From positions 1 through 57,091 of the IMG/VR virus record IMGVR_UViG_2534681675_000025: a DNA stretch of 57,091 nt; one strand, written 5' to 3'. Within the stretch, counting starts at the first letter, position 1, and each line of letters begins with the position of its first letter. Under the pieces are notes generated by a model. It did not search any database and had not been told where the DNA came from. It worked only from the letters and a program-made list of their open reading frames with translations. The stretch comes from a virus (taxonomy: Duplodnaviria; Heunggongvirae; Uroviricota; Caudoviricetes). The translations under genes and the position numbers were made by a program. Shown here in pieces: positions 16,213 to 52,020 of this stretch.

Positions 16213-16222
16213 GGTGACTTTT

Positions 16223-16456: not shown

Positions 16457-16569
16457 TTTTGTCAATAGACGCTTGTTTTTACTAATCAAAAAGGGTTACA
16501 TATGAGTGAGAGGCGATGTCAATCAGATATCGCCTTGTTTTTTGTCAAGAAAAGAATAATAGGCTAAAA

Positions 16570-17247
16570 ATGAAAATTAATAATGTAGCGTTACCAATAT
16601 CTCTTGCTGTAATCCTAACTGGTTGCGTGCCACATGCTTCTAACCGAAATATCACTGCTATTGAAGTGGTGAAGCCTGCTATTGGGCAAAGTGCTACCGC
16701 CTACATGGGCGATCCCATTATCACATCTGCTACTGGATTTAAAACGGACGTACTAGAACTTGGTGCGGCTAATGGTGCATTGTCTTCTATCGCTGCTGGT
16801 ACATATTGCAGTGAGGGGAATGGAATTTACCGCAATTATCATAACCCTCAAGCTGTTGCGTTAAAAAATCTCTATGGGCAAATCGGTAACTATGTTGATT
16901 ATGTTAGTTACGATGCTGCAAAAAATGAGATATCACCGCCAAATGGTACTTCTTATACTGCATCAGAAATTTCTATCAAACGTGTTCCTGATGGGCTGTG
17001 TCGAGTTAGTAACTCATTGGTTAAGACTATCGAATACAATGGAAATGCAGGCGGTGTAATGAAGTTCACCTATCGTGAATTTGCAAACGATATGGCTCGT
17101 GCAGCATTTACAACAGATTTTTCTGTAGATTCTAAGGGAAGTGACGTTATCGCTTACAAAGGTGCCAAGTTCAAAGTGAACAAGGCTGATAACTCGTCTA
17201 TTTCTTATACAATTATTTCTGGCTTTGACAAGGCTGTCACGTTCTAG
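16570..17247 (+). CDS. Predicted lipoprotein, function unknown (cargo)
   Basis: MKINNVALPISLAVILTGC lipobox signal; 225 aa; lies between the replication gene and cos. Confidence 0.7.
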   Translation: MKINNVALPISLAVILTGCVPHASNRNITAIEVVKPAIGQSATAYMGDPIITSATGFKTDVLELGAANGALSSIAAGTYCSEGNGIYRNYHNPQAVALKNLYGQIGNYVDYVSYDAAKNEISPPNGTSYTASEISIKRVPDGLCRVSNSLVKTIEYNGNAGGVMKFTYREFANDMARAAFTTDFSVDSKGSDVIAYKGAKFKVNKADNSSISYTIISGFDKAVTF

Positions 17248-17420: not shown

Positions 17421-17439
17421 GGCGTGGCGGGGATACGAG
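17421..17439 (+). other. Candidate cos (cohesive end) site of prophage 1
   Basis: ggcgtggcggggatacgag followed by cgcgcgct; resembles the P2/186 cohesive-end sequence as I recall it (GGCGAGGCGGGGAAAGCAC then TGCGCGCT). Confidence 0.5.
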
Positions 17440-17549: not shown

Positions 17550-18248
17550 ATGGTTATGTTAGTGGATGACTGTCCACGATGTGGATCACAAAAAATAGCG
17601 TTTGATGTTAATGGGCTGAATTGCACTAGGGTTTACAATGCATTGGGCGGGGGTAAAACATACGAGTACGAGGTCTATTGTGTTTGCCGAGAGTGTCATA
17701 AAACGACAATGTTTCTTTGCAGACCTTTAACGAAAAATAAAACTTTAGATGGCTATAATTGGGAAAGTGGAATATTCGGCTTAAAGGAAGTTGCAGAGGT
17801 TGTTAGGCCTATATCACCGGCAGACTTAGCAGTAGAGGAGCCACCAGAGTTCTTACCTGAGCATATCAATAGTGCATATGAGGAAGGGGCGAAATGTTTG
17901 GCTATAGGTTGTTATAATGCAGCAGCAACCATGTTTAGGCTTTGCCTTGATTATGCCACAAAAGGACTTCTTCCTGATGGGGAGCAAGGGCCTGCGCAAA
18001 AAATAAGGAGAAGCCTAGGGTTAAGAATGGAGTGGTTATTTGATAATCATCTACTGCCTGAAGCTTTAAGGGAACTAGCTGAATGCGTTAAAGATGACGG
18101 AAATGATGGAGCGCATGAAGGTATTTTGGATAAAGCTGCTGCTGAGGATCTTGAAGATTTTACCTATCTTTTTTTAGAACGGCTTTACACTGAACCTCAA
18201 CGCCTTATCGAAGCCAAGACAAGGCGTGAACAAAGAAGAAACAAATAA
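17550..18248 (+). CDS. Zinc-ribbon plus alpha-helical domain protein (possibly DUF4145-like), inserted between cos and Q
   Basis: 232 aa; N-terminal CPRCG...CVCRECH four-Cys ribbon; RBS gggagga before ATG; convergent with Q, 3' ends 8 bp apart. Confidence 0.7.
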   Translation: MVMLVDDCPRCGSQKIAFDVNGLNCTRVYNALGGGKTYEYEVYCVCRECHKTTMFLCRPLTKNKTLDGYNWESGIFGLKEVAEVVRPISPADLAVEEPPEFLPEHINSAYEEGAKCLAIGCYNAAATMFRLCLDYATKGLLPDGEQGPAQKIRRSLGLRMEWLFDNHLLPEALRELAECVKDDGNDGAHEGILDKAAAEDLEDFTYLFLERLYTEPQRLIEAKTRREQRRNK

Positions 18249-18256
18249 GTTCGGAA

Positions 18257-19294
18257 TTATTCTTCTGAAAGAATATAGGGCGTAAATTTAATCACTTCTT
18301 CGCCCAGCCAGTCGTTCAGCTCTTGTAGCCTTTTTTGCAAGGGAGTTAATTCATTACGTACAAATACGCGACTGGCCTTCTCCACATCCCCAAACCCTCC
18401 AACATTATTAGGCATAATCCCCATCATTTGCGGCGGCACGCGGTGCGCAGCCATCATGTCGTCGCGGCTGACATTTTTGATATTCAAAAACTCATCCTTC
18501 GCCGCGACTTCTGACAATGGGATGATCTGAAGCCCGTCTTTTTTGCCGTTAGGCGAGTACATAAACAGGTTGCGGAAGTTGCCTGGACCTTTGGCGCTTT
18601 TCATCGCATTGCGGAGGTTGTTCACATCCTCCTGGTTTTGCGCGGCATCGGTCATGTACATGATAAAGCCCGCATGACTGCCGTTAATGTAATACTTGCG
18701 ACGGAACAGCGTGGCGGACTCGTTGAGCAGGGCTGACGGAATGGCAGAAAGATAACCGGGCAGGCCGTAGATCTCCTGATTAATATCCGGTTCCATCAGA
18801 TGAAAAATGCTGCCTTTCGTGAACTGATACGGCTGGGTTGTCATACCGTATTGCACAAACCAGTAGGTATCCAGGTCTAACCCGCGTCGGGTGTATTTTG
18901 CCAGTGCAGGCTCAAGGGCGATAACTTCACCGAAGCGGTTCGTGCGTTTCTCCAGGTAGGCGTTACCAAAAACCAGATAGTCCTGCACAAAACGCGAAAA
19001 AGCCTGCTGGCTGAGCAGCGGGTGAGGGATGTAGGTGCTGGTCAGAATGTTGCACTTTACTGCAATCGGGGAACTATGATGCACGGCAGCGCGGAAGGTG
19101 CGCGCCAGTCCGTCAAAGCTGACGGGCGGCTCATACCAGCGGTCCATCTGTACGCATTCCACATAATCCAGCAGTTCTCGGCGGTCCAGAACAGGAACGG
19201 GATCGCCGAAGCTGAATGCTTCGGCTGTAGTTTGACTTTTAAGCTGGATCTGTTTCGTCGCCGCAGCGCGGTTCTTCTTACTCTTTCCCATCAA
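18257..19294 (-). CDS. Q: Portal protein (P2 gpQ family)
   Basis: 345 aa, P2 Q-like sequence and position next to terminase P. Confidence 0.9.
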   Translation of the reverse strand: MMGKSKKNRAAATKQIQLKSQTTAEAFSFGDPVPVLDRRELLDYVECVQMDRWYEPPVSFDGLARTFRAAVHHSSPIAVKCNILTSTYIPHPLLSQQAFSRFVQDYLVFGNAYLEKRTNRFGEVIALEPALAKYTRRGLDLDTYWFVQYGMTTQPYQFTKGSIFHLMEPDINQEIYGLPGYLSAIPSALLNESATLFRRKYYINGSHAGFIMYMTDAAQNQEDVNNLRNAMKSAKGPGNFRNLFMYSPNGKKDGLQIIPLSEVAAKDEFLNIKNVSRDDMMAAHRVPPQMMGIMPNNVGGFGDVEKASRVFVRNELTPLQKRLQELNDWLGEEVIKFTPYILSEE

Positions 19295-29098: not shown

Positions 29099-29696
29099 TC
29101 TGCTGCCACCGGGTTCAACTTCACTGGAGCGCCGACTGGCGCAAACCTGTAGCGGGATTTCTGATCTGCAGGTGCCGCTGCGTGACTTGTGGAATCCGGC
29201 TACCTGTCCGGTCAGCTTCCTGCCTTATCTCGCCTGGGCGTTCTCTGTGGATCGCTGGGACGAGGGCTGGACAGAAAGCGTCAAACGCCAGGTAGTGAAG
29301 GATGCTTTTTATATTCATCAGCATAAAGGAACTACCAGTGCCGTGCGGCGGGTGGTGGAACCGTTCGGATTCCTGATCCGCATTATTGAGTGGTGGCAGA
29401 CCGGAGAAACACCGGGCACGTTTCGCCTGGATATCGGCGTGCAGGACCAGGGCATCACTGAAGATACCTATCTGGAACTTGAGCGGCTGATAAGCGATGC
29501 CAAACCATGTAGCCGTCACATGATCGGCATGTCCATCAATCTGCAGACCAGCGGTCCGCATTGGGTGGGGGCCGCCAGCTATCTTGGCGAAGAAATCACG
29601 ATCTATCCGTATATCAACGAAACAATTATTTCCGGCGGCACCGCGCATGAAGGCGGGGCGGTCCATGTTATTGACACAATGAGAGTGAATCCATGA
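29091..29696 (+). CDS. I: Baseplate protein (P2 gpI family)
   Basis: 201 aa, begins MNSLLPPGSTSLERRL. Confidence 0.85.
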   Translation: MNSLLPPGSTSLERRLAQTCSGISDLQVPLRDLWNPATCPVSFLPYLAWAFSVDRWDEGWTESVKRQVVKDAFYIHQHKGTTSAVRRVVEPFGFLIRIIEWWQTGETPGTFRLDIGVQDQGITEDTYLELERLISDAKPCSRHMIGMSINLQTSGPHWVGAASYLGEEITIYPYINETIISGGTAHEGGAVHVIDTMRVNP

Positions 29697-31210
29697 GCAC
29701 AAAATTTTATACCCTGCTGACGGATATTGGCGCGGCGAAACTTGCCAGCGCCGCCGCGCTCGGTGTGCCGCTAAAAATTACCCATATGGCGGTGGGCGAT
29801 GGCGGCGGAACATTGCCAACGCCGGACGCCAAGCAGACAGCATTGGTAAATGAGAAACGCCGGGCTGCGCTGAATATGCTCTATATCGACCCGCAGAACA
29901 GCAGCCAGATTATTGCTGAACAGGTGATCCCTGAAAACGAGGGCGGTTGGTGGATACGTGAAGTGGGCCTGTTTGATGAGTCCGGGGCATTGATTGCCGT
30001 GGGCAACTGCCCGGAAAGCTATAAGCCGCAACTGGCTGAAGGCAGCGGGCGTACCCAGACCGTGCGCATGGTGCTGATTACCAGCAGCACGGACAATATC
30101 ACCCTGAAAATCGACCCTGCCGTAGTGCTGGCAACCCGCAAGTATGTGGATGACAAGGTACTGGAGCTGAAGGTGTACGTGGATGATCAGATGGCAAAAC
30201 ATCTTGCCGCACCGGACCCGCATTCACAGTATGCACCCAAAGAAAGTCCGACGTTTACCGGGACACCAAAAGCGCCAACTCCAGCGGCAGGGAATAACAC
30301 CACGCAGGTTGCGACCACCGCGTTTGTTCAGGCGGCACTGACGGCTCTTATTAATGGTGCGCCAGCCACGCTGGACACGCTGAAAGAAATAGCCGCAGCC
30401 ATTAACAATGATCCGAATTTCAGTACCACCATTAACAATGCGCTGGCACTGAAAGCGCCGTTGTCGAGTCCGGCACTCACCGGAACGCCAACAGCCCCCA
30501 CTGCTGCACAGTCGGTCAACAATACACAGATTGCCACCACGGCTTTTGTGAAATCGGCGATTGCAGCAATGGTAGGTTCTGCACCTGCGGCACTGGATAC
30601 ACTGAACGAACTGGCGTCGGCGTTGGGGAATGATCCGAACTTTGCCACGACAATGCTTAATGCGCTGGCAGGTAAACAACCGCTGGACAATACGCTGACT
30701 AATTTGAGTGGAAAGGATGTCGCTGGTCTTCTCGCATACCTTGGTTTGGGAGAAGGTGCTCCAGCTATTGGCGTTCCGTTCTTCTGGCCGTCCGCCGCAA
30801 TGCCAGATACCGTAATCGAAAGCTGGTCCGGCATGGTGTTTTTGAAGTTCAACGGCGCGAAATTCTCTGCCACTGATTACCCTGTGCTGGCGAAAGTGTT
30901 TCCTTCGCTGGTATTACCTGAAGCCCGCGGTGATTTCATTCGTATCTGGGATGATGGCCGTGGTGTTGATAGTGGCCGTGCGTTACTTTCCGCGCAATCA
31001 GACGATTTCAAAACGCACGAGCATAAAATTTTAGGGCTAAATGGAAGTGGCAGTAATGTAGTGTTTGGCACCGTTTCGAATGCTTCTCCATTATATACCA
31101 GCGGCGTTAGTCAGCCGGGTGGAAGTGCTTTGCCCGCTTTTCAAAACCCAGGCGGTACTGAAACGCGTCCCCGTAACATCGCATTCAACTTTTTAGTAAG
31201 GGCTAAATAA
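29693..31210 (+). CDS. H: Tail fibre protein (P2 gpH family)
   Basis: 505 aa; conserved N-terminus; internal repeats of the LDTLxELAxALGNDPNF motif. Confidence 0.85.
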   Translation: MSTKFYTLLTDIGAAKLASAAALGVPLKITHMAVGDGGGTLPTPDAKQTALVNEKRRAALNMLYIDPQNSSQIIAEQVIPENEGGWWIREVGLFDESGALIAVGNCPESYKPQLAEGSGRTQTVRMVLITSSTDNITLKIDPAVVLATRKYVDDKVLELKVYVDDQMAKHLAAPDPHSQYAPKESPTFTGTPKAPTPAAGNNTTQVATTAFVQAALTALINGAPATLDTLKEIAAAINNDPNFSTTINNALALKAPLSSPALTGTPTAPTAAQSVNNTQIATTAFVKSAIAAMVGSAPAALDTLNELASALGNDPNFATTMLNALAGKQPLDNTLTNLSGKDVAGLLAYLGLGEGAPAIGVPFFWPSAAMPDTVIESWSGMVFLKFNGAKFSATDYPVLAKVFPSLVLPEARGDFIRIWDDGRGVDSGRALLSAQSDDFKTHEHKILGLNGSGSNVVFGTVSNASPLYTSGVSQPGGSALPAFQNPGGTETRPRNIAFNFLVRAK

Positions 31211-31803
31211 TGAAACCTGTTTTTGATGAAAATGGACTGGCTACAGTGCCGGGTGATATGCGTTGTTTTTATTATGATGCAGTAACGTATGAATATACGG
31301 GCTGGTCTGATGAATATATTAATACTGGTATAAGTATGCCCGCCTGTTCCACTGGTATTGACCCTGGCGAAAACATTCCGGGAAAAGTGGCTGTATTTAC
31401 AGGTAAGGGATGGAGCCATGAAGAGGACCATCGCAATGAGACTGTTTACTCAATCGAAAATGGCGCAGCTGTTACAGTGGATTATATCGGTGCCATCAAA
31501 AACGGTTATGTCACGCTTTCACCGTTAACGCCATATGATAAATGGGATGGTGAGAAATGGGTGACAGATACTGAGGCACAACACGGTGCCGCAGTAGAAG
31601 CGGCAGAAGCACAGCGTCAGCCACTGATTGATGCTGCAATGGCTTCCATCAGTCTGATTCAGCTGAAATTACAGGCCGGGCGGAAGCTGACGCAGGCAGA
31701 AACCACCCGGCTTAACGCCGTGCTTGATTACATTGACGCGGTGACGGCAACAGATACGAGCACCGCTCCGGATGTCATCTGGCCTGAACTGCCGGAGGCG
31801 TAG
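31210..31803 (+). CDS. G: Tail fibre assembly protein (P2 gpG family)
   Basis: 197 aa, start overlaps H stop. Confidence 0.8.
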   Translation: MKPVFDENGLATVPGDMRCFYYDAVTYEYTGWSDEYINTGISMPACSTGIDPGENIPGKVAVFTGKGWSHEEDHRNETVYSIENGAAVTVDYIGAIKNGYVTLSPLTPYDKWDGEKWVTDTEAQHGAAVEAAEAQRQPLIDAAMASISLIQLKLQAGRKLTQAETTRLNAVLDYIDAVTATDTSTAPDVIWPELPEA

Positions 31804-32209
31804 GCCATTCAATATCTGGAGCACTGGAGGTATCAACCAGTTCCAGTGCGTCCAGATAATCCAGCCACAAATTATATTGCGCCAGTTCCTCACCTTTCAG
31901 ACGACCAATAGCCGCTTTACCAGGCCATTGCTTGGTATTCATATATTCGTTGGACTGATTAATCAATTGCTGTTTTTTCAATTCGGCTGCGGCAATCTGT
32001 TCCTCATGTGTTGGTGGTGGAATTTCAGACCATGCAGGAAAACCATTTTCCCCAGCGATACGGATTTTTCCTTTCGGCGGTAATCCGGAAAACTCAATAT
32101 ACACCTGCTCATCAACTTCAACAGCATCATCTGGCCATGAATTTACATTGATGTAGTCATCCTTAAGCGCAGGATTCACAAAAATATTTAAAGATGGACT
32201 AAAAAACAC
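31775..32209 (-). CDS. G: Tail fibre assembly protein (gpG family), prophage 2
   Basis: 144 aa; Tfa-like C-terminus; 3' end overlaps prophage 1 G by 29 bp, convergent. Confidence 0.75.
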   Translation of the reverse strand: MFFSPSLNIFVNPALKDDYINVNSWPDDAVEVDEQVYIEFSGLPPKGKIRIAGENGFPAWSEIPPPTHEEQIAAAELKKQQLINQSNEYMNTKQWPGKAAIGRLKGEELAQYNLWLDYLDALELVDTSSAPDIEWPTPPAVQAR

Positions 32210-32210
32210 A

Positions 32211-33692
32211 TCACCCTCCTATAGCAACATAACAGCCCGATACAGGATTTGCGGCAGTCGCTACGCTGGAAAAACCACGAAAGCCGCTTTTTGTGATTGC
32301 GGAGGCAGATAGTATTCCGGCACCCGAAGGTGTATGCCCCACGTGGCTGGCAACCATCACGTAGCACGCCGACGGAAAAGCGAAAGGGAAATTGTTTAAA
32401 TATCCCGCATCATCCCCCAGACTTCCCCCAAACTGCCCCACTCCCCACTGGATAATAAGTGGTCTCCGAACGCCAGAAATAATTAATGGAATTGCTACAT
32501 ACCCATTCACCAACATAGCGCCGGTTGTTGCGCCAGCCAGAGCCAATTCCCCCAAACCAAGGTAATCAAGAACTCCCTGAGTGCTGGTTTTACCAAGAAT
32601 GGCACGTCCAACACTTGTCAACGCGGTTAACGCGGCACGATCTGCCCCTGTAAAATATGGGAGTTTATCTGCTGATGTAGCAAGCTCCGCCAGCGCCGTC
32701 AGGGTGGCATCCTTCGGTTGCTTACCCGCAAGCGCGTTAGTCATGGTGGTCGCAAAATTCGGGTCATTGCCCAGCGCCGCAGCCAGTTCGTTCAGCGTGT
32801 TCAGTGCATCAGGTGACGAATCTACAAGTGCGGCAATCGCGGCCATAACGAAAGCCGTGCTTGCGATCTGGGTACTATTAGTCCCCTGTGGCGCTGTTGG
32901 TGTTGTTGGCGTTCCGGTCAGTGCCGGGCTGTTTAATGGTGCTTTCTTGCTCGTTTCATCCATTACCGCCTTAACAGCTTTTGGTGTCGCTGCCAGCGTT
33001 TCAGACGTGCTGTTCGTGGCGCTACTGAGCTGAACAATCCCTTTTTGTGTAGTGGTGGCGTTCTGGGCGGTATATTTCCCGTTAGCCAGGTCATATGCAG
33101 CCTTAACCGCTTTCGGTGTTGCGGCCAGTGTTTCTGATTCACTGTTAATTGCACTGCTTAACTGAGTAAAACCTTTTACGGTCAGCGAGGCGTCCGGGTG
33201 ACGTCGTGACTGTTCGTGCTCTGATATTTTATCATCCACATATTTGCGGGTTGCCAGAACCACAGACGGGTCGATTTTCAGCGTGATGGCTTCGGTGTTC
33301 GTGACAACCAGAATCATGCGGATAGTCTGGGTGCGTCCACTGCCTTCCTGCAACTGCGGTTTGTACGTTTCCGGGCAGTTTGCCACCGCAATGAGTACAC
33401 CTTCATCATCATAAAGCCCAATCTCACGGATCCAGAATCCTCCCTCGTTTTCAGGGATGATTTGCTCCGCAATAATCTGGCTCTGATTGTTAGGGTCAAC
33501 ACTCAGAAGATTCAGCGGTGCAATGCGTTTCTGGTTAATCAGTTTTGTTTGTGCAGGGTCTGGTGTTGGTAACACACCATTTGCATCACCAACGGCCATT
33601 TGCGTCAGATTCAGCTTACTGCCGAGCATCGTCGCGTTAGCCAGTCGTGCCGCGCCCTGATTAGTCAGAATGGCGTAGTATTTCACTGTCAT
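32211..33692 (-). CDS. H: Tail fibre protein (gpH family), prophage 2
   Basis: 493 aa; N-terminus homologous to prophage 1 H; contains LNTLNELAAALGNDPNFATT motif. Confidence 0.85.
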   Translation of the reverse strand: MTVKYYAILTNQGAARLANATMLGSKLNLTQMAVGDANGVLPTPDPAQTKLINQKRIAPLNLLSVDPNNQSQIIAEQIIPENEGGFWIREIGLYDDEGVLIAVANCPETYKPQLQEGSGRTQTIRMILVVTNTEAITLKIDPSVVLATRKYVDDKISEHEQSRRHPDASLTVKGFTQLSSAINSESETLAATPKAVKAAYDLANGKYTAQNATTTQKGIVQLSSATNSTSETLAATPKAVKAVMDETSKKAPLNSPALTGTPTTPTAPQGTNSTQIASTAFVMAAIAALVDSSPDALNTLNELAAALGNDPNFATTMTNALAGKQPKDATLTALAELATSADKLPYFTGADRAALTALTSVGRAILGKTSTQGVLDYLGLGELALAGATTGAMLVNGYVAIPLIISGVRRPLIIQWGVGQFGGSLGDDAGYLNNFPFAFPSACYVMVASHVGHTPSGAGILSASAITKSGFRGFSSVATAANPVSGCYVAIGG

Positions 33693-42176: not shown

Positions 42177-43928
42177 ATGATTCAGGACGCTTTTGTGCGC
42201 CAGCGTGCGCGGCAACTTTACTGGCAGGGGTATCCGCCCGCAGAAATATCACGTCTGATGGGAATAAACCCGAACACGATTTATGCGTGGAAAAAACGCG
42301 ACCAGTGGGATGAAACACCACCCGTGCAGCGTGTCACGCAGTCCATCGATGTGCGCCTCATCCAGCTTACTGAAAAACAGAATAAAACAGGCGGTGACTT
42401 TAAGGAAATAGACCTGCTGACCCGGCAGCTTAAAAAGCTGCATGATGGCCAGCCGGATGTGATGGCCGCAGGAAAGAAAGGCCGGGCGAAAAAACTCAAA
42501 AATCATTTCACGCCGGAACAGATTGCCGCACTGCGGGAAAAAATCATCAGCAGGCTGGAGTGGCATCAGCGGGGCTGGTTTGACTCCCTGACCCTTTGCA
42601 GGGAAGCCGGGATACGTAACAGGATGATCCTGAAATCCCGACAGATTGGGGCGACCTGGTATTTTGCACAGGAAGCACTGCTGATGGCGCTGCGTGACGA
42701 TGTGGCGCAGCCTTACCAGCGTAACCAGATTTTTTTGTCTGCGTCGCGTCGTCAGGCGTTCCAGTTTAAAAGCATTATTCAGAAGGCCGCGGCTGAAGTT
42801 GATGTGGAGCTGAAAGGGGGCGATAAAATCATCCTCTCCAACGGCGCAGAGCTGCATTTTCTCGGCACTTCTGCTGCGTCGGCACAGTCCTATACGGGCA
42901 ATTTTTATTTTGATGAATTTTTCTGGGTCAGTCGCTTTGCTGAACTGCGCAAGGTGGCTGGCGCTATGGCAACCCTCAGCGGACTGCGGCGCACCTACTT
43001 CTCCACGCCATCCACCGAAACGCACGAGGCATACGCCTACTGGAACGGCGACCGCTGGAACGAGAAAAAGGCCTCGCATAAACGCCAGCGTTTTTCTGTG
43101 GACTGGAAAACGCTGCATAACGGGCTTATCTGCCCTGACCGGACGTGGCGGCAAATTGTCACGCTGGAAGATGTGGTTAATCACGGCTGGAAACACACCG
43201 ATATCGACGAAATTCGTGATGAAAACACCGAAGACGAGTTCCTCAATCTCTATATGTGTGAGTTTGTCCGCGAAGGGGAATCGGCATTTAACCTGAATAT
43301 CCTGATTGGCTGCGGTGTTGACGGATACGACGACTGGAAAGACTGGAAACCTTTTGCTCCCCGCCCGATGGGGAATCGTCCGGTATGGATTGGGTATGAC
43401 GCAAACGGCAGCAGTGGCAACGGCGACAGCGGCGCTGTGTCCGTGGTGGTTCCTCCGGCTGTTCCTGGTGGCCGTTTTCGAACGGTGGAGACGCGACGCG
43501 TTCAGGGGCTGGAGTTTGAAGAACAGGCCAGAGTCATTGAAGATTTCACGTATCGCTACAACGTGGAACACATCGGCATTGATGTGACGGGCGGGAACGG
43601 GGAGGCTGTTTATCAGATAGTGAAACGGTTTTTCCCTGCCGCTATTCCGTACACCTTCACGCTGTCATCAAAACGGTCGCTGGTACTGAAAATGCTGCAA
43701 ATAATGCGTGCCGGGCGGTGGGAATACGATCGCGCCGAACGCGAGCTGGTCGCGGCCTTTAACGCCGTGCGTAAGGTGAAAACACCGGGCGGCTTTATCA
43801 CTTACGAAACGGACCGCGCGAGGGGGATCAGCCACGGCGACCTTGCGTGGGCAACCATGCTTGCTGTCATTAACGAACCAATTGGCGGCGAAGGAGAAAA
43901 CGAGCGTTTCACGGTTATGGAGTTCTGA
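42177..43928 (+). CDS. P: Terminase large (ATPase) subunit (gpP family), prophage 2
   Basis: 583 aa homologous to prophage 1 P. Confidence 0.9.
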   Translation: MIQDAFVRQRARQLYWQGYPPAEISRLMGINPNTIYAWKKRDQWDETPPVQRVTQSIDVRLIQLTEKQNKTGGDFKEIDLLTRQLKKLHDGQPDVMAAGKKGRAKKLKNHFTPEQIAALREKIISRLEWHQRGWFDSLTLCREAGIRNRMILKSRQIGATWYFAQEALLMALRDDVAQPYQRNQIFLSASRRQAFQFKSIIQKAAAEVDVELKGGDKIILSNGAELHFLGTSAASAQSYTGNFYFDEFFWVSRFAELRKVAGAMATLSGLRRTYFSTPSTETHEAYAYWNGDRWNEKKASHKRQRFSVDWKTLHNGLICPDRTWRQIVTLEDVVNHGWKHTDIDEIRDENTEDEFLNLYMCEFVREGESAFNLNILIGCGVDGYDDWKDWKPFAPRPMGNRPVWIGYDANGSSGNGDSGAVSVVVPPAVPGGRFRTVETRRVQGLEFEEQARVIEDFTYRYNVEHIGIDVTGGNGEAVYQIVKRFFPAAIPYTFTLSSKRSLVLKMLQIMRAGRWEYDRAERELVAAFNAVRKVKTPGGFITYETDRARGISHGDLAWATMLAVINEPIGGEGENERFTVMEF

Positions 43929-44974
43929 TGAGCAGAAAAAATAAAAAAGTGCGCATGAGTTCACGCATTGATCTCGCTGATGCACTCAGGAAAGAATCGT
44001 CGCTCAGTGCATTCACTTTTGATGGTCCTTATCGCCTGACCGGGCATGATTTGCTGGACAATATGTACTGTGCTGATAACGGGCGGTGGTATGAAACCCC
44101 GGTGGACTGGTACGGTCTGGCAAGAGCCGCCCGGCAAACGTCCTGGCATCAGTCTGCGCTTTACTTTAAGCGCAATGTATTGCTCGGTTGCTACATCCCG
44201 CACCCGCTGCTTTCCCGGCAGGATTTCTCGGCGCTGGCGCTGGACTGGTTTGTGTTCGGTAACGCATTCCTTGAGCTTCGAAGCAATATGCTCGGCGAAC
44301 CGCTTAAATTACGGCACGCCCTGGCGAAATACATGCGACGCGGAAGCGATCTTGAATCATGGTGGTATGTGCAGGATGGCAAGGACGCGTTTCAGTTTCG
44401 CCCAGGCAAAGTGTGCCACCTGATGAATCCTGACATTAACCAGGAAATCTACGGCATGCCGGAATATCTCGGCGCATTACTCTCGGCCAGCCTGTCTCAT
44501 TCGGCGGACATGTTCAGAAAACTGTATTACGACAACGGATCCCACGCCGGGTGCATCATCTACATCGGTGCAGCGCAGGTAAACCGTGAAAGCATGGACT
44601 CCCTGAAAGAAACGCTACAGGGTGCACGTGGTGGTGGTGCGTTTAAAAACGTGCTCATTCATGCGCCCAACGGGGGCAAAGAAGGTGTGCAAATTTTGCC
44701 GTTCCAGCAGATCACCGCAAAGGATGAGTTCATGAATGTTAAGTCGGCATCCCGTGATGATGTGCTGGCTGCGCACCGCGTTCCGCCGCAACTGATGGGG
44801 GCGATGCCGGGCGAAAAAAGTGCGTTTGGTGATGTGGAAAAGGCCGCGCGGGTTTACGCAATTAACGAGCTGATGCCTGTCATGGAGGCCATGAAGCACA
44901 TCAATGACTGGCTTGGCGAAGAGGTGATCCGTTTTAATTCTTATGCTCTTCTTGATGAAAAAACAGCCCCGTGA
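43928..44974 (+). CDS. Q: Portal protein (gpQ family), prophage 2
   Basis: 348 aa homologous to prophage 1 Q. Confidence 0.9.
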   Translation: MSRKNKKVRMSSRIDLADALRKESSLSAFTFDGPYRLTGHDLLDNMYCADNGRWYETPVDWYGLARAARQTSWHQSALYFKRNVLLGCYIPHPLLSRQDFSALALDWFVFGNAFLELRSNMLGEPLKLRHALAKYMRRGSDLESWWYVQDGKDAFQFRPGKVCHLMNPDINQEIYGMPEYLGALLSASLSHSADMFRKLYYDNGSHAGCIIYIGAAQVNRESMDSLKETLQGARGGGAFKNVLIHAPNGGKEGVQILPFQQITAKDEFMNVKSASRDDVLAAHRVPPQLMGAMPGEKSAFGDVEKAARVYAINELMPVMEAMKHINDWLGEEVIRFNSYALLDEKTAP

Positions 44975-44990
44975 TGGGGCTGTCCTTTTT
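44962..44990. terminator. Bidirectional hairpin between convergent Q and the adjacent inserted gene
   Basis: acagcccc-gtga-tggggctgt stem flanked by an A-run and a T-run; Q stop codon lies in the loop. Confidence 0.5.
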
Positions 44991-45513
44991 ACCAGAGTTG
45001 AACCATTTTCTGGGTGCCGTCAGGCTTGAGATTATCAATTTCAGAGAGAACGTAATATTGAATGGCTTCACAAACGGTGGTGTATGGTGAATTACCTTCT
45101 TTAAGTGGCACGATATTATTATTAACGCGAACCTGTATTTCATCGTTATACATTGCGATCGAAAGAGGAGTATGCACGAACGCGACTTCGCCAGGTGTGT
45201 CGTCAACCACTGTCTCAATGCTGAAAATCAGTTTTCGCTCATCATTGCTGCCTCTTGCTTTGGGGGTTGCGGCAGGAATCTGGGATAAAGGCATTCTGCG
45301 AAATCCTTCGGCCGTTTCCAGTCCGCATGAAACGTAATGCTGGCGATTACCGTCGATATCTGTCCACGTTTGTGACGGCAGATCCAGCGAGATTTCATAA
45401 GCATCAACAATTCCCTGGGCAAGGCGTACAAGCGGGGTCAGGTCTTCATTGCGGCGAAAGCTCTCCTTTACCTGCTCTCGTTTTTCTCTTAACTGCTTGT
45501 AATTAATGACCAT
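44989..45513 (-). CDS. Hypothetical protein inserted next to Q (convergent), prophage 2
   Basis: ATG at 45513 preceded by GGAGG; about 174 aa; no recognisable motif. Confidence 0.6.
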   Translation of the reverse strand: MVINYKQLREKREQVKESFRRNEDLTPLVRLAQGIVDAYEISLDLPSQTWTDIDGNRQHYVSCGLETAEGFRRMPLSQIPAATPKARGSNDERKLIFSIETVVDDTPGEVAFVHTPLSIAMYNDEIQVRVNNNIVPLKEGNSPYTTVCEAIQYYVLSEIDNLKPDGTQKMVQLW

Positions 45514-46010
45514 AAGACAGCCTCCATTGATTTCTTTGCTCGTATTTTGCACTTATGAAGTGTGGTCGGCAAGGTGCCGTATCGCTGACGCGCTTCGCTT
45601 GTCTGCTGCTTCGCCGGGGCATAAAAAATTTATGCCCCGACTCTCCAGCTCCTGTATCAATCAGATAATTTCACGACGTCTTCCAACTTATCGCCATCAT
45701 CGACGGCCAGACTCTTACGCAATCCCATCGCGCTGATAGCATGTTCTCACTGCCTCAGTGCGATTTTGACGGCCTTATCTGTTATCCCATCAAATCAGAC
45801 CCCTTACGTCTTTTTCACGCTCAGCGTGAGCGATACAGCCATTCTGTTGTGTCACTGCGACATCGTTCAGGGAATGCTATCCCCCCCCTGAAACGCGGGC
45901 TGTTCCCCCGTCACCTGCGCGCAGAAAAAACGCGTTTTTTTGTGCACGCACGGATCCTTGACGGATCCAGCCGCCACGGGGGCCGGAAGGGCAAAAAGTC
46001 GTTCAAAAAA

Positions 46011-46040
46011 ATTGTGCAAATTTGTGCACTATTGTGCATT
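46011..46040. repeat. Three TTGTGCA half-site repeats at about 10-bp spacing (candidate operator or packaging-recognition repeats)
   Basis: attgtgcaaatttgtgcactattgtgcatt; followed by a hairpin (aaacgccctggaagagggcgtttt, 46043-46068). Confidence 0.4.
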
Positions 46041-46078
46041 AAAATAAACGCCCTGGAAGAGGGCGTTTTGGCTCATTT

Positions 46079-46339
46079 CTATAGCTTTGATGCAGGCTGG
46101 GCTAGATGCAAGGGTTGGACATACCAGCCTTTTGATAACCAACTCTCTGCAACCTCTTTACTCCTTGTTATTGCTGGTATTCCGATGCCGTTATTTACAT
46201 GCATCCATGCTACTGGCTCTGCTTCCAGTGATGCCAGTGCAATTTCATAAGCACGGCGCTCAATATTGTCTCGAACGTCCAGGCTGCCTATGCGCTCTTT
46301 GATTTCTTTAATCAGTTCTTTGTCGGTGAAAGTTGTCAT
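46079..46339 (-). CDS. Hypothetical protein
   Basis: 86-aa ORF in the operon downstream of A. Confidence 0.5.
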   Translation of the reverse strand: MTTFTDKELIKEIKERIGSLDVRDNIERRAYEIALASLEAEPVAWMHVNNGIGIPAITRSKEVAESWLSKGWYVQPLHLAQPASKL

Positions 46340-46349
46340 GTGTTAGTCC

Positions 46350-46613
46350 TTATCCTGCTGTGCTTTCAACTGATGAGGGGAACAAAATCTTTTCATCAAA
46401 CCCTGCATTCATATCATGAACAGCAACACACCAATCCATTGACGAACGATTATCAAGAGCCTCCATGATTTCATCCATGCGGCGCAGGTCATACAGGTAA
46501 ATGCTTTTATCGCCAATGGTGTAAAAACCAATTTTTTTCGGTGATGGGCAGCGATCAAGAACGTCCTGTAATTCATTCAACCATGCCCGTTCTTTTTTTG
46601 TTAAAGTTGCCAT
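46350..46613 (-). CDS. Hypothetical protein
   Basis: 87-aa ORF, translationally coupled to the upstream gene. Confidence 0.5.
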   Translation of the reverse strand: MATLTKKERAWLNELQDVLDRCPSPKKIGFYTIGDKSIYLYDLRRMDEIMEALDNRSSMDWCVAVHDMNAGFDEKILFPSSVESTAG

Positions 46614-46614
46614 A

Positions 46615-47106
46615 TCACTCTCCTTTGATGCGAATGCCAGTGGTACTCATTCTCCTGATTTCCCAGAGCACACGAGGAACACCACCGTTTCCGACCGGAT
46701 CGCGTTTACTCCGCAGGGCGACGCTTGATTCCGCCCAGCTTTTTCTTGGAGGAAGCTCTTTCACACGAACAAAACCAGCTGCGCGAAGAGATGCTCCTGA
46801 TTCATCTGCCTGGGTGTACGTAATACAACGTTGATAACCCATAGCTTTTGCTGCCCGCCAGACAGCACCATAAAGCGCGCTGTTAGCGTTGCGTTCTCCT
46901 GTGGTACATGTGCGATTTACTTCAAGCGTTAATCCATCGTCCAAATGTCGTGCAACAGGTCGACCGGCTGTCGCCACACCTATCAATTCTCCGGCATCAT
47001 TTCTCAGACCAATGCTGAATTTATGCCCCACCGGGGGTTTATTGTGTCGGTGATGTCTGGATATAAACGCCTTCGCAACACGAAGAGTAACCGGTGAAAT
47101 TTGCAT
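46615..47106 (-). CDS. Hypothetical protein; start taken at MQISPVTL
   Basis: ATG at 47106 preceded by AAGGAGAG and overlapping the upstream stop. Confidence 0.5.
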   Translation of the reverse strand: MQISPVTLRVAKAFISRHHRHNKPPVGHKFSIGLRNDAGELIGVATAGRPVARHLDDGLTLEVNRTCTTGERNANSALYGAVWRAAKAMGYQRCITYTQADESGASLRAAGFVRVKELPPRKSWAESSVALRSKRDPVGNGGVPRVLWEIRRMSTTGIRIKGE

Positions 47107-47108
47107 TC

Positions 47109-47423
47109 TCACTCTCCTTTGATGCCAATGTTTACAGTCTGGCAAGCTTCTCTGAGCACCCAGTCAACAGCGTCTTTCCATGCTCCGGTTTCGGTTGGCG
47201 GATTCTCACGCTTTACCAGTTCATAGAAACGTACTGCTCTAACCAGTCCATCTGACGGTTTTGCCTGTAGTGCAGCCTGAGCTATACGGTATGCCTGGAG
47301 CATACGGGCGTCGTTGATATCCATTCCGAACGGAATTTCTGATGATCGTGATTCTGCATCTTCAAGCCTGGCAATTTCTTTACGTAAAAAGTATTTCAAC
47401 TCTTGTTTTTGTTTTCTGTTCAT
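47109..47423 (-). CDS. Hypothetical protein
   Basis: 104-aa ORF. Confidence 0.5.
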
Positions 47424-47752
47424 GTGTTTTTTCCCTTTTTGTCTGCCACTTCTCTCCTGATAATTTCATTGCACAAATCCACGCACTCATTGCAGATGTA
47501 AACAGACGGTCCAGCAATCACCTTTGTGACTTCGTACTGGGATTTATTGCAGAAGCTGCAATAAATCGTTTCCTCGCCTGAAGCCCATGTTTTGCTGGTT
47601 TTGCCAGACATCAGTTGTTTGAGGTCTTTTTCACGACGAAGAACTATCTGGCCACATTCAGCTATTTTTTGGATGTTGACATTTTCTTCTTGCGCCAGCG
47701 CTTCCATCCGCTCAATCAGTCGCTGCGCTTTTTCTCTGTCAATGTGTTGCAT
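47420..47752 (-). CDS. Small protein with ClpX-type C4 zinc-binding domain at C-terminus
   Basis: [39 protein letters not shown] closely resembles the ClpX N-terminal zinc-binding domain (recalled as [39 protein letters not shown]). Confidence 0.65.
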
Positions 47753-47815
47753 TGTGTCCCCCTTGTTTATGTTCCCGGGTTAAAGTCATCAGGGCGGATG
47801 CGCCCTGATGTTGTG

Positions 47816-48127
47816 TTATTCGGGAAATAACGCCCGGATATTTCCGGCCATCTGACTGGTTATCTGTGCGGTTGGTGCTGGCTGTGACACGGGGCGTTCT
47901 GTCCTGGTTTGTGTCAGGGATAACGCTTCATCGTCAGCCCATGCAGCCAGTCGGTAAGCCTCTGCCGGATTAATTTTCATAAGTGCCAGTCCGGCCAGAA
48001 AAGCCACACGTTGACCACTTTTGCGGGCTTCTGGTGTAAGGCTGTCCAGCCAGGCGCATGCTTTGCCTTCGTTCTTGACGGCGGCGGGCTTCAGATAGAA
48101 ACTTATCCGTCTGGTTGGTGTCGTCAT
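47816..48127 (-). CDS. parR: ParR-like ribbon-helix-helix partition adaptor
   Basis: Start ATG 48127 after AAGGAG, overlapping parM stop; RRISFYLKP...LDSLTPEARKSGQRVAFLAGLAL parallels plasmid R1 ParR (RTIAFKLNP...LDSIPQGERSRLNRAALTAGLAL). Confidence 0.65.
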   Translation of the reverse strand: MTTPTRRISFYLKPAAVKNEGKACAWLDSLTPEARKSGQRVAFLAGLALMKINPAEAYRLAAWADDEALSLTQTRTERPVSQPAPTAQITSQMAGNIRALFPE

Positions 48128-48131
48128 TGGT

Positions 48132-49091
48132 TTACTCCTTGTCCATTGCGTACAGCCCATTAACCAGAGCAAACTGTGGCACCCCGTCCGCGATGAAAGT
48201 CGCATTAACTCCGCAGGCTTCGCGGATAGCGGGTGCCACAATCTCCGCCCCGCCACCGACAACCATCACCCGCCCGTAACCCGAAAAACCCGCCAGCGCG
48301 CGGATCACGCGTTGTTTCAGTGTTTCTTCCTTTTCACGAATAACCGCCATCAGGCTGTTGTAATGCGCGTCATTGTGGATGTGCTGGCGCAGCCAGGCTT
48401 CATCATGGCGATGTTCGATAATGGTATTGGCGATGTGGTGACTGGTACGCATACCGTTAGTGGCCATCACCGACAGTACGGCATCGGCCATCAGGGAAAC
48501 GCCTACGTGTGGATCGCAAAACACCTGGCTGATACCTGCCAGTTGTCCCTGAACCTTTGCCACATCCAGCGTGGTTCCGCCTAAATCCACAATCAGCAGG
48601 GATTCAAACGGACTCATGTCAGCCAGTGCTTTAAAGCCAGCCGGAATGGATTCAGGCATAACCCGCACGTTACGGATAGTGAATGCCTCACCGTTCTGGT
48701 ACTCCACCGGGCGCATAACGTTCGCTTTTTTGCGGTTGATGTTGGCCATGTCCGGCTGTGCGTTTGTGTCGAAATACTCGCTCAGTGGCAGGGTGACAAC
48801 CACATCCACCTCCTGTGGTGTGATGCCTGATTTGACCAGCGCGTGGTGAATGGCGATTACATTCACATCGCTGTACTGGTATTGCGTGTCGGTCGTCTGG
48901 ACAAAGCGATCGCTGACCGGATCAAAACCATAGCGCACGCCATCAAGCATGTAGTTCGCAGGCTGCGAGCCACCGAACGGCGCAGACCATTCCGACTTGA
49001 AGCTGTTCGGGCTGATGGCGTTGCGGCGTTCGCTGTTCTCAGTCCATGCCAGCTTGATGTTGGTGGAGCCGTCGTCGATACAAATTTTCAT
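48132..49091 (-). CDS. parM: ParM/StbA-like actin-type segregation ATPase
   Basis: 319 aa; MKICIDDGSTNIKLAW..., SDVNVIAIHHAL, IRNVRVMPESIPAG, LLIVDLGGTTLD, VMVVGGGAE match plasmid R1 ParM throughout. Confidence 0.85.
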   Translation of the reverse strand: MKICIDDGSTNIKLAWTENSERRNAISPNSFKSEWSAPFGGSQPANYMLDGVRYGFDPVSDRFVQTTDTQYQYSDVNVIAIHHALVKSGITPQEVDVVVTLPLSEYFDTNAQPDMANINRKKANVMRPVEYQNGEAFTIRNVRVMPESIPAGFKALADMSPFESLLIVDLGGTTLDVAKVQGQLAGISQVFCDPHVGVSLMADAVLSVMATNGMRTSHHIANTIIEHRHDEAWLRQHIHNDAHYNSLMAVIREKEETLKQRVIRALAGFSGYGRVMVVGGGAEIVAPAIREACGVNATFIADGVPQFALVNGLYAMDKE

Positions 49092-49120: not shown

Positions 49121-49231
49121 CGTTTACGGGGTTTTTAAATCCCGTTTTTGCCTGTTTTATGCGCGCTTCATATATCGCGGCGCGTTTTTTGCTCATTTAC
49201 GGGATTTGTGAATCCCGTTTCTGTCTGTTTT
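49121..49231. repeat. Two 38-bp repeat units each containing an 8-bp-arm palindrome (ACGGGRTT-N4-AATCCCGT), upstream of parM; candidate parC-like centromere
   Basis: Units at 49121-49158 and 49194-49231 (cgtttacggggtttttaaatcccgtttttgcctgtttt and catttacgggatttgtgaatcccgtttctgtctgtttt). Confidence 0.45.
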
Positions 49232-52020
49232 TTGTTTCCATTGGTCAGGCCACCCCGCAGCAGGTCTGCTTTGCGGCGGGCGCGTTCAGTGGTTTCACTG
49301 ATTCTCTGTGCGTGCTCTGCGTCACGGATGGCGCGCAGCATGTCAGAAAGCACGGTAACGGGTGTCTTCATGGTGTTCTGGTCTTGCTGAAGTGTGGATG
49401 CCAGGCGTGCGGCGGCTTCGGGGTCTGATGCCCCCAGCTGTTCCAGATAACTGGCGACCGGGTTATGGCGGATCTCCGTGCTGCTTACGCCGTGATTACG
49501 GCTCAGGCGCTGCCAGAGCTGCGTGATTCGGTTGTCCGGGCGGGTATCCGGTTTGCGTACAATTTCAAATCCCTGCGGTGCAATGATGCTGCCGTCAACG
49601 TACAGACTGCCGCCCCGTAACAGGTGCTGCATCTGCTGTTCACCGATATGCAGGCCGAGAGATTCAGCAGACTCCCGCCATTCTTTAGCGAGTAATTCGT
49701 GGTTATCAGGCAAAGGCCGCTGCTGTTTGCGGCTCTGTGTCCAGCTCTGCATTTCATCACTGCTGTTTTTTGCCTGTTTGTCACGAAGCGAACGCATCAG
49801 CGCCCGGCGTTCGTGCCGTTTCAGTGAGCGCATCCATTCGTTCACTTCAACGCCGTCAGGGAGCTGCGGCCACGGTGCTGGCCGTTCTTCCGGCTGTTCT
49901 GTCCCGTTGTTGTCCGTTTCCTGTACACGGGGACAGTTATTGCCACGAGTCCAAGGGGCGGCAGGGCCGCCCTGAAGGTCAAAACCATTTTCGCGGGCGC
50001 TGTCTTCCGCTTCCGGTTTACGTCTTACCAGCTTCCAGTTATCCGGATGCGTGCACACACGGGAGGATTCCCCGATGAATGGCGACCAGATCCCGTAAAT
50101 CTGTACACTCTGTTCGCCGTAATCGTTCAGCTCATCTGCGAGGTCGTAGGCTGTGCGAATCAGGTAGTCCTTGCGCGGAACAAGTACGCCACCCTGTTTT
50201 TCAATGTAGGTGGCAAAACATCCGGCATCAGCGGCAGCGAGTACCGCATCCATTGCGTCATCCTTCAGCCGTTGCGGGCCTTCCGGGTTGCGTGCCATCT
50301 GGCTGGCAAGGCGGCGCAGTTCACGCCACACCTGACGGGAGGGGATGCCAAAGAACTGGAACTGGCGGACCCGATGAAGGCGCGCCCAGCCGATGGCGCG
50401 CTCCACGCTCTCGGCCATTGATTTTCCGGTTTCGTGGTCAACGCGTGGTTTGCCCGTTTTCGGGTCGATTCCATCCACGGCGCGGCTGTCCAGGTTTTTT
50501 CCGATGTAGGTGGCGATGTAGCTGGTTGGCGTGCCTTTGGAGCCGTCGACGTACTCCACCTTAAAGCGCGGAGTAATATCATTGCCCAGCTCGTGGCGGT
50601 CTTCCTGAATGGCAATATCGCGGGTGATGGCCACGATGCTGTCGATTTCTTCCGGATGAGCAAAGACCATCATATGCCAGTGCACGGTGCCGTCATGGTG
50701 AGGCTCCACCGTGCGGATGCCATACCAGCGCAGGCCGTCGCGGTTCAGTTTTTTGCGGACCGCCGCAAAAAACGTGTTAACCAGGTAATCGCTGGAGTCG
50801 CGCATGGTGGCCCCGTTCCATTTGGGATTCGGATGACCGTTCTCTGTTGTGGCGTGGTATTTTGACGGGCAGGTGACAGTCAGAAACACCGCTTTGTCGC
50901 CACGGGCTTCGGCCAGAAGTTCCAGTCCCTTCATGGTGGCCATCATTTCTGCCTTACGGTGAACCGGGTTACTTACTCCCGCGTAATACACTGTCTCGAG
51001 ATCAATCGTGAAACCGTCTTCGTTTTCCAGTTCGAAGCTCTTCAGGAAGTCGCGGGTTTTCTCGCGCTGTGCGCGAAACTCGCTTAACGCGTCCTGGCTC
51101 AGATAGGGTGATGTTTTTCTGGAAACCAGACAGGCGGCGCGGAGTTGTTCTTCTCTCCACTCACAACGTAACAGCCACAGTTTGCGTTTCCACCAGTCCG
51201 CACAGGTCAGGCGAAGGATTGCGCCCGGCAGCAGTTCCGTATCCGGTTCGCTCTTGTTCAGGGCTTCGTAATGTGGCGGCATGATGTGCAGGCGTAATGC
51301 GATACGAGCCAGCATCCGGTAAGCCTTCAACATTACATCCATGGTCAGCTCGCCATCTCTGGCACCAAAGCCATCGCAGAGTGTTTCGAAGGTGCTGCTG
51401 AACATCGCCGCGGTCATGGTGGCCAGCGTCTGTATCTGGTGCTTGTTGAGCTGCGGCAGGTAAAGCAAATCGTCCAGGCGTTCGCGCCCGGCAAGGGAGC
51501 GATAACCCGGTGTCAGCCAGCGTCCGTCAGTGCGATCCAGACGTTCGAATATTTTGCGCAGGGTTCCGCGTGCATAGCGTTCCGCCTGCCAGCTCTTTTT
51601 GCCTTTCTGGCGATCGGCTTCCTGTTTTTTGCGCAGGAAAGAGAGGTGGCGGCTCAGTGGTTCACGCAGATAAACAGGTAGTGCCTTTAGTGTGGCAAAG
51701 GCACGGGCTACCGGGTCTTGTTCTGTTGCCCGGCGCTTACTGATGATGCTCTGTGCCAGCTTTTCACGCTGTCCGGCTTCCTCAAGGGATGCCATGAGTT
51801 TTTTACCCATGGCGGATTGTGCGAAAAAGGCTTCTTCCTTCGCTTCCTGTTCTTCCTGTGCCCTTTTGTCCGCCTCAAGGTAGTAACGGATGGCGCGTTG
51901 CAGGTCGGTTTCAGTTTCCTGCCTGCGCTCCGTAAATCTGGCCGGATCAATGGCTGGCCGTGGTTCATTCCAGCTCCATGCAAACTCACTCATGGCTGGT
52001 ATCCCGTCACGCGCTGCCAC
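49168..52020 (-). CDS. A: Replication initiation endonuclease (P2 gene A family), prophage 2
   Basis: 950 aa; conserved TPTSYIATYIGKNLD and HWHMMVF regions shared with prophage 1 A; long C-terminal extension. Confidence 0.9.
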   Translation of the reverse strand: MAARDGIPAMSEFAWSWNEPRPAIDPARFTERRQETETDLQRAIRYYLEADKRAQEEQEAKEEAFFAQSAMGKKLMASLEEAGQREKLAQSIISKRRATEQDPVARAFATLKALPVYLREPLSRHLSFLRKKQEADRQKGKKSWQAERYARGTLRKIFERLDRTDGRWLTPGYRSLAGRERLDDLLYLPQLNKHQIQTLATMTAAMFSSTFETLCDGFGARDGELTMDVMLKAYRMLARIALRLHIMPPHYEALNKSEPDTELLPGAILRLTCADWWKRKLWLLRCEWREEQLRAACLVSRKTSPYLSQDALSEFRAQREKTRDFLKSFELENEDGFTIDLETVYYAGVSNPVHRKAEMMATMKGLELLAEARGDKAVFLTVTCPSKYHATTENGHPNPKWNGATMRDSSDYLVNTFFAAVRKKLNRDGLRWYGIRTVEPHHDGTVHWHMMVFAHPEEIDSIVAITRDIAIQEDRHELGNDITPRFKVEYVDGSKGTPTSYIATYIGKNLDSRAVDGIDPKTGKPRVDHETGKSMAESVERAIGWARLHRVRQFQFFGIPSRQVWRELRRLASQMARNPEGPQRLKDDAMDAVLAAADAGCFATYIEKQGGVLVPRKDYLIRTAYDLADELNDYGEQSVQIYGIWSPFIGESSRVCTHPDNWKLVRRKPEAEDSARENGFDLQGGPAAPWTRGNNCPRVQETDNNGTEQPEERPAPWPQLPDGVEVNEWMRSLKRHERRALMRSLRDKQAKNSSDEMQSWTQSRKQQRPLPDNHELLAKEWRESAESLGLHIGEQQMQHLLRGGSLYVDGSIIAPQGFEIVRKPDTRPDNRITQLWQRLSRNHGVSSTEIRHNPVASYLEQLGASDPEAAARLASTLQQDQNTMKTPVTVLSDMLRAIRDAEHAQRISETTERARRKADLLRGGLTNGNKKQTETGFTNPVNEQKTRRDI

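Follow-up and report, generated by a model that had tools for sequence, protein, structure and literature searches.

The stretch of DNA analysed here (the window; 57,091 nucleotides, positions 1 to 57,091 of IMG/VR record IMGVR_UViG_2534681675_000025, Caudoviricetes) contains two P2-family half-prophages. In the second of these, a P88-like Xuanwuvirus with its capsid genes on the minus strand, a gene encoding a protein of 174 amino acids (aa) lies between the portal gene Q and cos (Table 1). As the first-pass annotation of this DNA had described, this gene is convergent with Q and nothing stands between the two other than a common hairpin. The stop codons are just 14 bp apart, and that of Q is in the loop of the hairpin, which has a T-run on each side and folds with energies of -18.8 kcal/mol (z -3.8) on one strand and -21.5 kcal/mol (z -5.0) on the other; none of 200 shuffled sequences was as stable. 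Terminator hairpins likewise lie 3' of the Salmonella and lambdoid homologues of the gene. Upstream, a ribosome-binding site and a putative sigma-70 promoter precede the start codon, and the Salmonella homologue keeps the hexamers and the spacing of this promoter (TTGTCT-17-CAAAAT) within a surrounding sequence that has diverged. The gene is real and under purifying selection. Two of its alleles differ by 16 synonymous and 5 non-synonymous codons, and against the 62%-identical Salmonella homologue the proportion of differences is 0.79 at synonymous sites (pS; saturated) and 0.26 at non-synonymous sites (pN). A public collection contains the identical protein within a cluster of 405 sequences, and one allele is present on at least 1,000 contigs. 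The product is cytoplasmic, with an isoelectric point (pI) of 5.0, and has no transmembrane segment, signal peptide or hydrophobic segment.

Alignment with P88, which is deposited as a complete, circular phage genome, delimits a cassette around the gene. In P88, the Q stop codon runs straight into CTGACGCGCTTCGC and on to a palindrome, whereas in the window and in PhiR44_2 ~628 bp stand in place of the last five Q codons (DEKTAP* here, DTQPTS* in P88). Besides the hairpin, the gene and its ribosome-binding site, the cassette includes 70 bp of sequence upstream of the gene. It is present in PhiR44_2, 569R5 and 705R2 and absent from P88 and P88_4B11; this absence from close relatives with precise boundaries (~44957 and ~45584), together with the possession of its own terminator, is typical of a phage moron. 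The cassette is dispensable accessory DNA of foreign base composition, with a G+C content of 46% against 53-54% in Q, P and the Q-cos backbone. It is also transcriptionally separate from both neighbouring operons: the late P-Q operon is convergent with it across the terminator, and terminators, cos and the palindrome lie between it and the early operon, the two hairpins at the end of the early/accessory operon providing the insulation on that side. The last ~50 bp of Q (44926-44974) share ~76% identity with P88, as against ~94% in the rest of the gene. The greater divergence of this stretch and the replacement of the final five codons suggest that a recombination event within the 3' end of Q brought in the cassette from a different phage lineage.

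Table 1. Features of the Q-cos region of prophage 2, with its flanking genes, and the corresponding occupant in prophage 1 (positions in the window)
Feature	Position	Strand	Basis or remarks
Accessory cassette, ~628 bp (net +614 bp relative to P88)	44957-45584	-	Terminator, gene, ribosome-binding site, promoter; P88 alignment
174-aa cargo gene	44989-45513	-	ATG at 45513; phrog_5091 match; identical to WP_000236490.1
Bidirectional intrinsic-terminator hairpin, common to Q and the 174-aa gene	44963-44983	both	ACAGCCCC-GTGAT-GGGGCTGT, A/T runs on both sides
Ribosome-binding site GGAGG	45525-45521	-	7 nt upstream of ATG; read from sequence
Putative sigma-70 promoter in the cassette	45572-45544	-	-35 TTGCCG (45572-45567), 17-bp spacer, -10 CAAAAT (45549-45544)
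Backbone palindrome CGGGGCATAAAAAATTTATGCCCCG	45615-45639	both	Invariant in P88, PhiR44_2, SCU-115 and P88_4B11; outside the cassette
cos of prophage 2, approximate	45960-45995		Ends of the P88_4B11 record
Two terminator-like hairpins, end of early/accessory operon before cos	46014-46068	-	
Terminase gene P, prophage 2	42177-43928	+	
Portal gene Q, prophage 2	43928-44974	+	Pfam Phage_portal, E 1e-17; P88 alignment
Accessory genes, prophage 2, right of cos	46079-49091	-	
Replication gene A, prophage 2	49168-52020	-	
232-aa DUF4145 protein gene, occupant of the cos-Q slot in prophage 1	17550-18248	+	Pfam DUF4145, E 4.5e-7

When 5,426 complete E. coli genomes were surveyed, 397 proved to contain the cassette (401 places), in all cases on the chromosome and beside a portal gene. 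The P88-type Q-cos backbone occupies ~1,320 places in 1,146 genomes. When 60 evenly spread P88-type rows are considered, 37 are uninterrupted and 19 carry an insert of identical length, 614 bp; the matches extend over 1405 bp when the cassette is present and over 791 bp when it is not. An alternative gene, located on the cos side of the palindrome, is found in SCU-115 and 26 other genomes (27/5,426); its insertion point corresponds to ~45652 of the window and it is annotated as encoding 236 aa (locus L012, 2570-3280). This gene was first assumed to be unrelated cargo, an assumption dropped when profile comparison placed it in the same family as the 174-aa protein at ~20% identity (hhalign probability 98%, E 2e-13; hmmsearch E 1.7e-18). 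Met70, and not the annotated first residue, is probably where the protein begins, as it fits the family N-terminus. On the basis of the sampled rows and of this shared family membership, the P88-lineage slot has three states: empty (about 68%), allele A (about 30%) or allele B (about 2%). It is therefore not promiscuous, being nearly biallelic on the Q side. The cassette is common in the ST131, O111 and O145 lineages, and natural presence and absence alleles exist in otherwise near-identical prophages, including those of the ST131 strain JJ1886 and of O111 strains.

The P2/186-type cos-Q slot is far more diverse, with DUF4145, SieB, DUF6953 and several unrelated hypothetical genes, and in P2 itself the slot contains only the terminator tQ. 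Prophage 1 of the window, which is P2/186-like, illustrates this diversity. Its slot is occupied by a DUF4145 gene, also convergent with Q, whose product has a weak match to the PADLOC model PD-T7-4 (E 1.2e-6) and is unrelated to the 174-aa protein (BLASTP E 1.6). The first-pass annotation was thus right that the two prophages hold unrelated proteins in equivalent slots; the shared-hairpin arrangement is not mirrored in prophage 1, because the gap between the DUF4145 gene and Q is 8 bp and contains no hairpin.

That annotation had taken two unrelated genes at one position as the sign of a cargo hotspot. The slot is indeed variable and the gene dispensable, P88 and about two thirds of the P88-type prophages being empty at this position. 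The interpretation is right, but it is not new, because the region is published and an allele of the gene is already catalogued. The cos-proximal region between gpA and gpQ is a known P2 hotspot, with 1,650 arrangements in 18,150 loci, which holds old and tin in P2 and is enriched in anti-phage systems; its cargo outside defence includes partition systems and cytolethal distending toxin (Rousset 2022, PMC9122126). Four new systems were found at the gpA-gpQ site under the name 'hotspot #1' (Vassallo 2022, PMC9519451), and the site was confirmed as the main P2 hotspot (Moura de Sousa 2026, Nucleic Acids Research, PMC13586616). WP_000236495, the common allele, which is 97% identical to the 174-aa protein and is carried by JJ1886, has 167 entries in the accessible part of Table S5 of Rousset, as 'hypothetical', and is not in Table S2, which lists the tested systems. 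Neither WP_000236490 nor WP_000236495 was found in two supplementary files of Vassallo, and searches by accession and PHROG found no mention in the literature of either protein or of phrog_5091. The gene is hence catalogued and uncharacterised.

The 174-aa protein matches phrog_5091 with an E value of 2.7e-66, residues 1-168 aligning to positions 1-164 of the 164 in the profile. No match was obtained in Pfam, NCBIfam or PADLOC for the protein or the family members scanned (five members in the case of PADLOC), and the sequence matches found in the PDB (biased matches to designed helical repeats with no domain passing, and a weak match to EMC2 by profile) were rejected as noise. Close homologues come only from E. 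coli, Salmonella, Yersinia and Trabulsiella. When 1.8 billion representative sequences were searched with the profile, 89 clusters were retrieved, mostly full-length and of 155-175 aa, which share the motifs M-x-I-T-Y, AY-x2-SL-x-LP-x2-TW-x-D-x2-G-x4-YV, TV(V/I)DD(S/T)P and VC-x2-IK; the members examined are all mildly acidic (pI 4.3-5.6). Y39, S42, W50 and T101-D105 are invariant positions.

All of the genomic contexts examined are accessory slots of temperate phages. A Salmonella P2-like prophage has the same order of cos, gene, hairpin and portal, while the Trabulsiella member lies directly downstream of gpA, beside HicB and Phd-Fic genes. In Serratia, in an insect symbiont and on metagenomic contigs, the gene is carried by lambdoid prophages, in the slot between the antiterminator gene Q and the holin gene and 2-3 kb upstream of terminase and portal. 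It is this Q-holin slot that stx occupies in the Stx (Shiga toxin) phages. For the Xenorhabdus family member, the look-up of encoding contigs came back empty. Among deposited phage genomes the family is found in four P88-like phages only, and only two plasmid records matched. No neighbouring gene is common to the contexts examined, and the family is therefore a one-gene module. In two lambdoid phages, a terminator-like hairpin is followed by ATGACA-17(TG)-AATTAT, GGAG, an ATG and the gene, and then by a second terminator, the ATG after GGAG being that of the conserved family N-terminus. At the corresponding lambdoid loci (L018, 4974-5040; L006, 6974-7040), an annotated 12-residue N-terminal extension overlaps a good extended -10 promoter, better than the site in the window, and the GGAG ribosome-binding site. 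As a promoter and a ribosome-binding site precede the ATG that matches the family N-terminus, the 12-residue extensions annotated on many members are probably promoter sequence, and the true start is the internal methionine. The protein thus defines an unannotated and undescribed phage-only family, encoded by a single gene in P2-like A-Q and lambdoid Q-holin slots.

An AlphaFold2 model built from ten homologues (predicted local distance difference test, pLDDT, 80; predicted template modelling score, pTM, 0.72) is reasonably confident. It comprises an antiparallel sheet of five to six strands, with a helical hairpin at the N-terminus, a helix at the C-terminus and the conserved DD(T/S)P motif at the tip of a hairpin. 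Given the lack of a catalytic motif and a predicted fold of this kind, a protein-binding role is likelier than an enzymatic one.

The palindrome that the first-pass annotation had reported just beyond the gene exists (GGGGCATAAAAAATTTATGCCCC at 45616-45638, 2 bp from the position originally given; -22 and -28 kcal/mol, z -5.3 and -5.9) and is a feature of the phage backbone. In P88 it lies ~30 bp past the Q stop codon. An annotated terminator, tQ, holds the corresponding position in P2, and on this ground the palindrome is probably the ancestral end-of-Q hairpin and a positional analogue of tQ. Its supposed resemblance to the cos core was not borne out. When the P2/186-type 19-nt cohesive-end core was searched with up to three mismatches, a test that gives an exact match in prophage 1 at 17421, no match to GGCGTGGCGGGGA appeared near 45590-45650, and the palindrome is invariant in P88, which is devoid of the gene; its candidacy as cos was rejected. 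The linear P88_4B11 record (LR595891) starts and ends at window positions 45993/45994, which places cos ~340 bp to the right of the palindrome. The Q-cos backbone (45586-45995, ~410 bp) is non-coding, yet its sequence is conserved at 90-95% in over 1,100 E. coli genomes; the short open reading frames (ORFs) of 42-47 aa annotated over it in several records as 'hypothetical protein' are probably spurious.

We propose that a self-contained moron cassette, made up of a promoter, a ribosome-binding site, one gene and a bidirectional terminator, has been inserted between Q and cos of a P88-like prophage. The cassette would be transcribed in the lysogen from its own sigma-70 promoter and, given the moron type of regulatory design, prophage expression may be independent of the lytic programme. 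The product would be a small, acidic, cytoplasmic and non-enzymatic alpha+beta binding protein, which most likely would bind a component of competing phages and block it, so protecting the lysogen in the manner of Tai (tail assembly inhibition) and not by catalysis. Protection of the lysogen against other phages is the explanation we favour, with a probability of roughly 40%. In its favour are the enrichment of the hotspot in anti-phage systems and the ~20% identity of the two occupants of the P88 slot, a divergence typical of conflict genes. Several points weigh against this proposal. The putative promoter is weak by consensus (4/6 and 4/6) and was missed in a strict consensus scan. Known defence models in PADLOC match neither the 174-aa protein nor the five family members scanned, and Foldseek searches of the PDB and BFVD returned nothing at E values up to 0.001, the structural matches being too weak for homology to be established. 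Only 15-32% of the unknown proteins of P2 are marked as defensive by machine-learning-based prediction (Nucleic Acids Research 2026, PMC13586616). Lastly, small, acidic, single-gene binders are equally typical of counter-defence proteins. A wider proposal, conceivable but with the odds against it, is that the whole family (~89 clusters at 50% identity, with two divergent P88-slot alleles and lambdoid members, present in ~7% of complete E. coli genomes) constitutes an unrecognised single-protein conflict system of temperate enterobacterial phages. Its members would be non-enzymatic binders with a new fold-level mechanism, acting against a late or packaging step of competitors or, alternatively, against satellites that hijack cos and capsids.

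The foremost competitor of lysogen protection, although in our view improbable, is counter-defence, in which the product would bind and neutralise an immune component of the host or of a competitor (restriction, abortive infection or similar) and so aid establishment or replication. A small, acidic, stand-alone and highly divergent protein with no enzymatic domain would suit such a role, and the same accessory region contains a Mom-like/XF1762 candidate DNA-modification gene; however, the 174-aa gene is insulated from the early operon, has its own promoter-like site and is not in an immediate-early position, and the lambdoid members sit behind tR'-like terminators in the late region. Anti-defence genes are also rarely detected in P2-like prophages (28 elements; PMC13586616), and structural scores are at noise level for homology.

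Somewhat less credible again is lysogenic conversion, that is, a gene altering host physiology (stress tolerance, metabolism or virulence) with no role in phage conflict. The extreme divergence among members suggests an arms race instead, the family does not extend beyond phages (all contexts examined are prophages, and plasmid records number two), and the protein lacks a secretion signal and a transmembrane segment as well as any known domain for virulence or metabolism. These observations are set against the moron architecture and probable lysogenic expression of the gene, the non-defence cargo known from the hotspot, and the frequency of the gene in ST131, O111 and O145.

We give still less weight to a factor serving the phage itself, either in its own life cycle (lysogeny, timing of induction, capsid or packaging) or by blocking P4-like satellites or phage-inducible chromosomal islands (PICIs) that hijack the same cos and capsid. 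Both host phage types, P2-like and lambdoid, are known helpers of satellites. Moreover, the P88 Q/cos slot has been filled repeatedly by one family, at two independent insertion points flanking the palindrome, and the lambdoid members are within 2-3 kb of terminase and portal. Yet P88 and two thirds of related prophages do without the gene, the Trabulsiella member is beside gpA and toxin-antitoxin genes and not the portal, and neither sequence nor fold links the protein to any packaging, capsid or regulatory protein.

Finally, a conserved packaging or cos-recognition factor, which the position next to Q and cos might have suggested, is excluded because P88, P88_4B11, P2 and about 68% of P88-type prophages lack the gene, its homologues being found moreover in lambdoid phages with unrelated packaging systems, and a spurious ORF is excluded by purifying selection, the ribosome-binding site and a full-length family of 89 clusters.

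Beyond the slot, the layout of the window is as follows. Prophage 1 has A at 13455-15869 and Q at 18257-19294 (minus strand), and its cos (17421-17439) contains an exact match to the 186-type core sequence at 17421-17433. Each half-prophage extends from int to H/G, and both are devoid of the FI-D/ogr tail half; the two are joined head-to-head at the tail-fibre genes, with a junction at ~31775-31803 (within window positions 29693-33692). In strain MFDS1019527, an intact P88-like prophage has an invertible tail-fibre segment that adjoins a recombinase (invertase), and window positions 30738-33400 are 99.9% identical to that segment. The head-to-head arrangement and the 99.9% match to an invertible fibre segment suggest a chromosomal inversion between the two prophages, via invertase crossover sites or common fibre sequence.

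Both prophages also carry cargo on the A side of cos. That of prophage 2 comprises the Mom-like/XF1762 GNAT gene (46615-47145, minus strand), possibly a DNA-modification or anti-restriction gene, as well as genes for a ClpX-type zinc-finger protein (47420-47752, minus strand) and a ParM/StbA partition ATPase (48132-49091, minus strand). This A-side cargo is not the same among otherwise similar prophages (OkiPb01675, JJ1886, P88), and the two sides of cos therefore assort independently. Prophage 1 bears cargo on both sides of cos (16151-17247 and 17550-18248), the A side comprising a DinI-like gene and a gene of 243 aa with 40% G+C (phrog_1353).

Nothing new comes from the hotspot itself, which is textbook knowledge as the tin/old region of P2 and was extended by Rousset 2022. 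The candidate, for its part, is an abundant one-gene cassette with clear boundaries, whose family recurs in two unrelated accessory slots of temperate phages. If it acts in defence or counter-defence, it would represent a new family in which no domain can be recognised, and a common polymorphism of E. coli prophages would be accounted for; otherwise it is one more hypothetical moron.

When compared with known systems, the 174-aa gene has the general attributes of gpA-gpQ hotspot cargo: it lies between A and Q, adjoins cos and varies among related prophages. It differs in being on the Q side, whereas old and tin, the classical cargo, are on the A side together with most of the diversity. The DUF4145/PD-T7-4-like protein of prophage 1 occupies the equivalent cos-Q slot and is likewise encoded convergently with Q, but its sequence is unrelated and no hairpin separates its gene from Q. 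Another near system is P1 DarA (defence against restriction protein A; PDB 9vz0_I).

The mechanism proposed here is modelled on Tai, the nearest analogue in function, a single protein expressed in the lysogen which binds a structural protein of the invader without catalysis and is found in prophages, in PICIs and in P4-like satellites (He et al. 2024, PMC11364771). Homology to Tai was rejected on a comparison with the two large ORFs of the phi80 Tai region, which lie upstream of cos and of which one may be TaiEcA (orf63): hhalign gave a probability of 0.1% for the ORF of 204 aa and of 0.5% for that of 242 aa. No adjacent anti-Tai-like partner is seen beside the 174-aa gene. As with Tai, nevertheless, the product is a small single protein encoded in moron loci near packaging or late modules and in cos-proximal hotspots.

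Among morons, gp15 of HK97 is a membrane superinfection-exclusion protein, unlike the soluble 174-aa product, which is unrelated to it in sequence. With phage morons as a class, the cassette shares an extra gene without counterpart in relatives, its own terminator, a promoter-like element, a deviant G+C content and an independent orientation.

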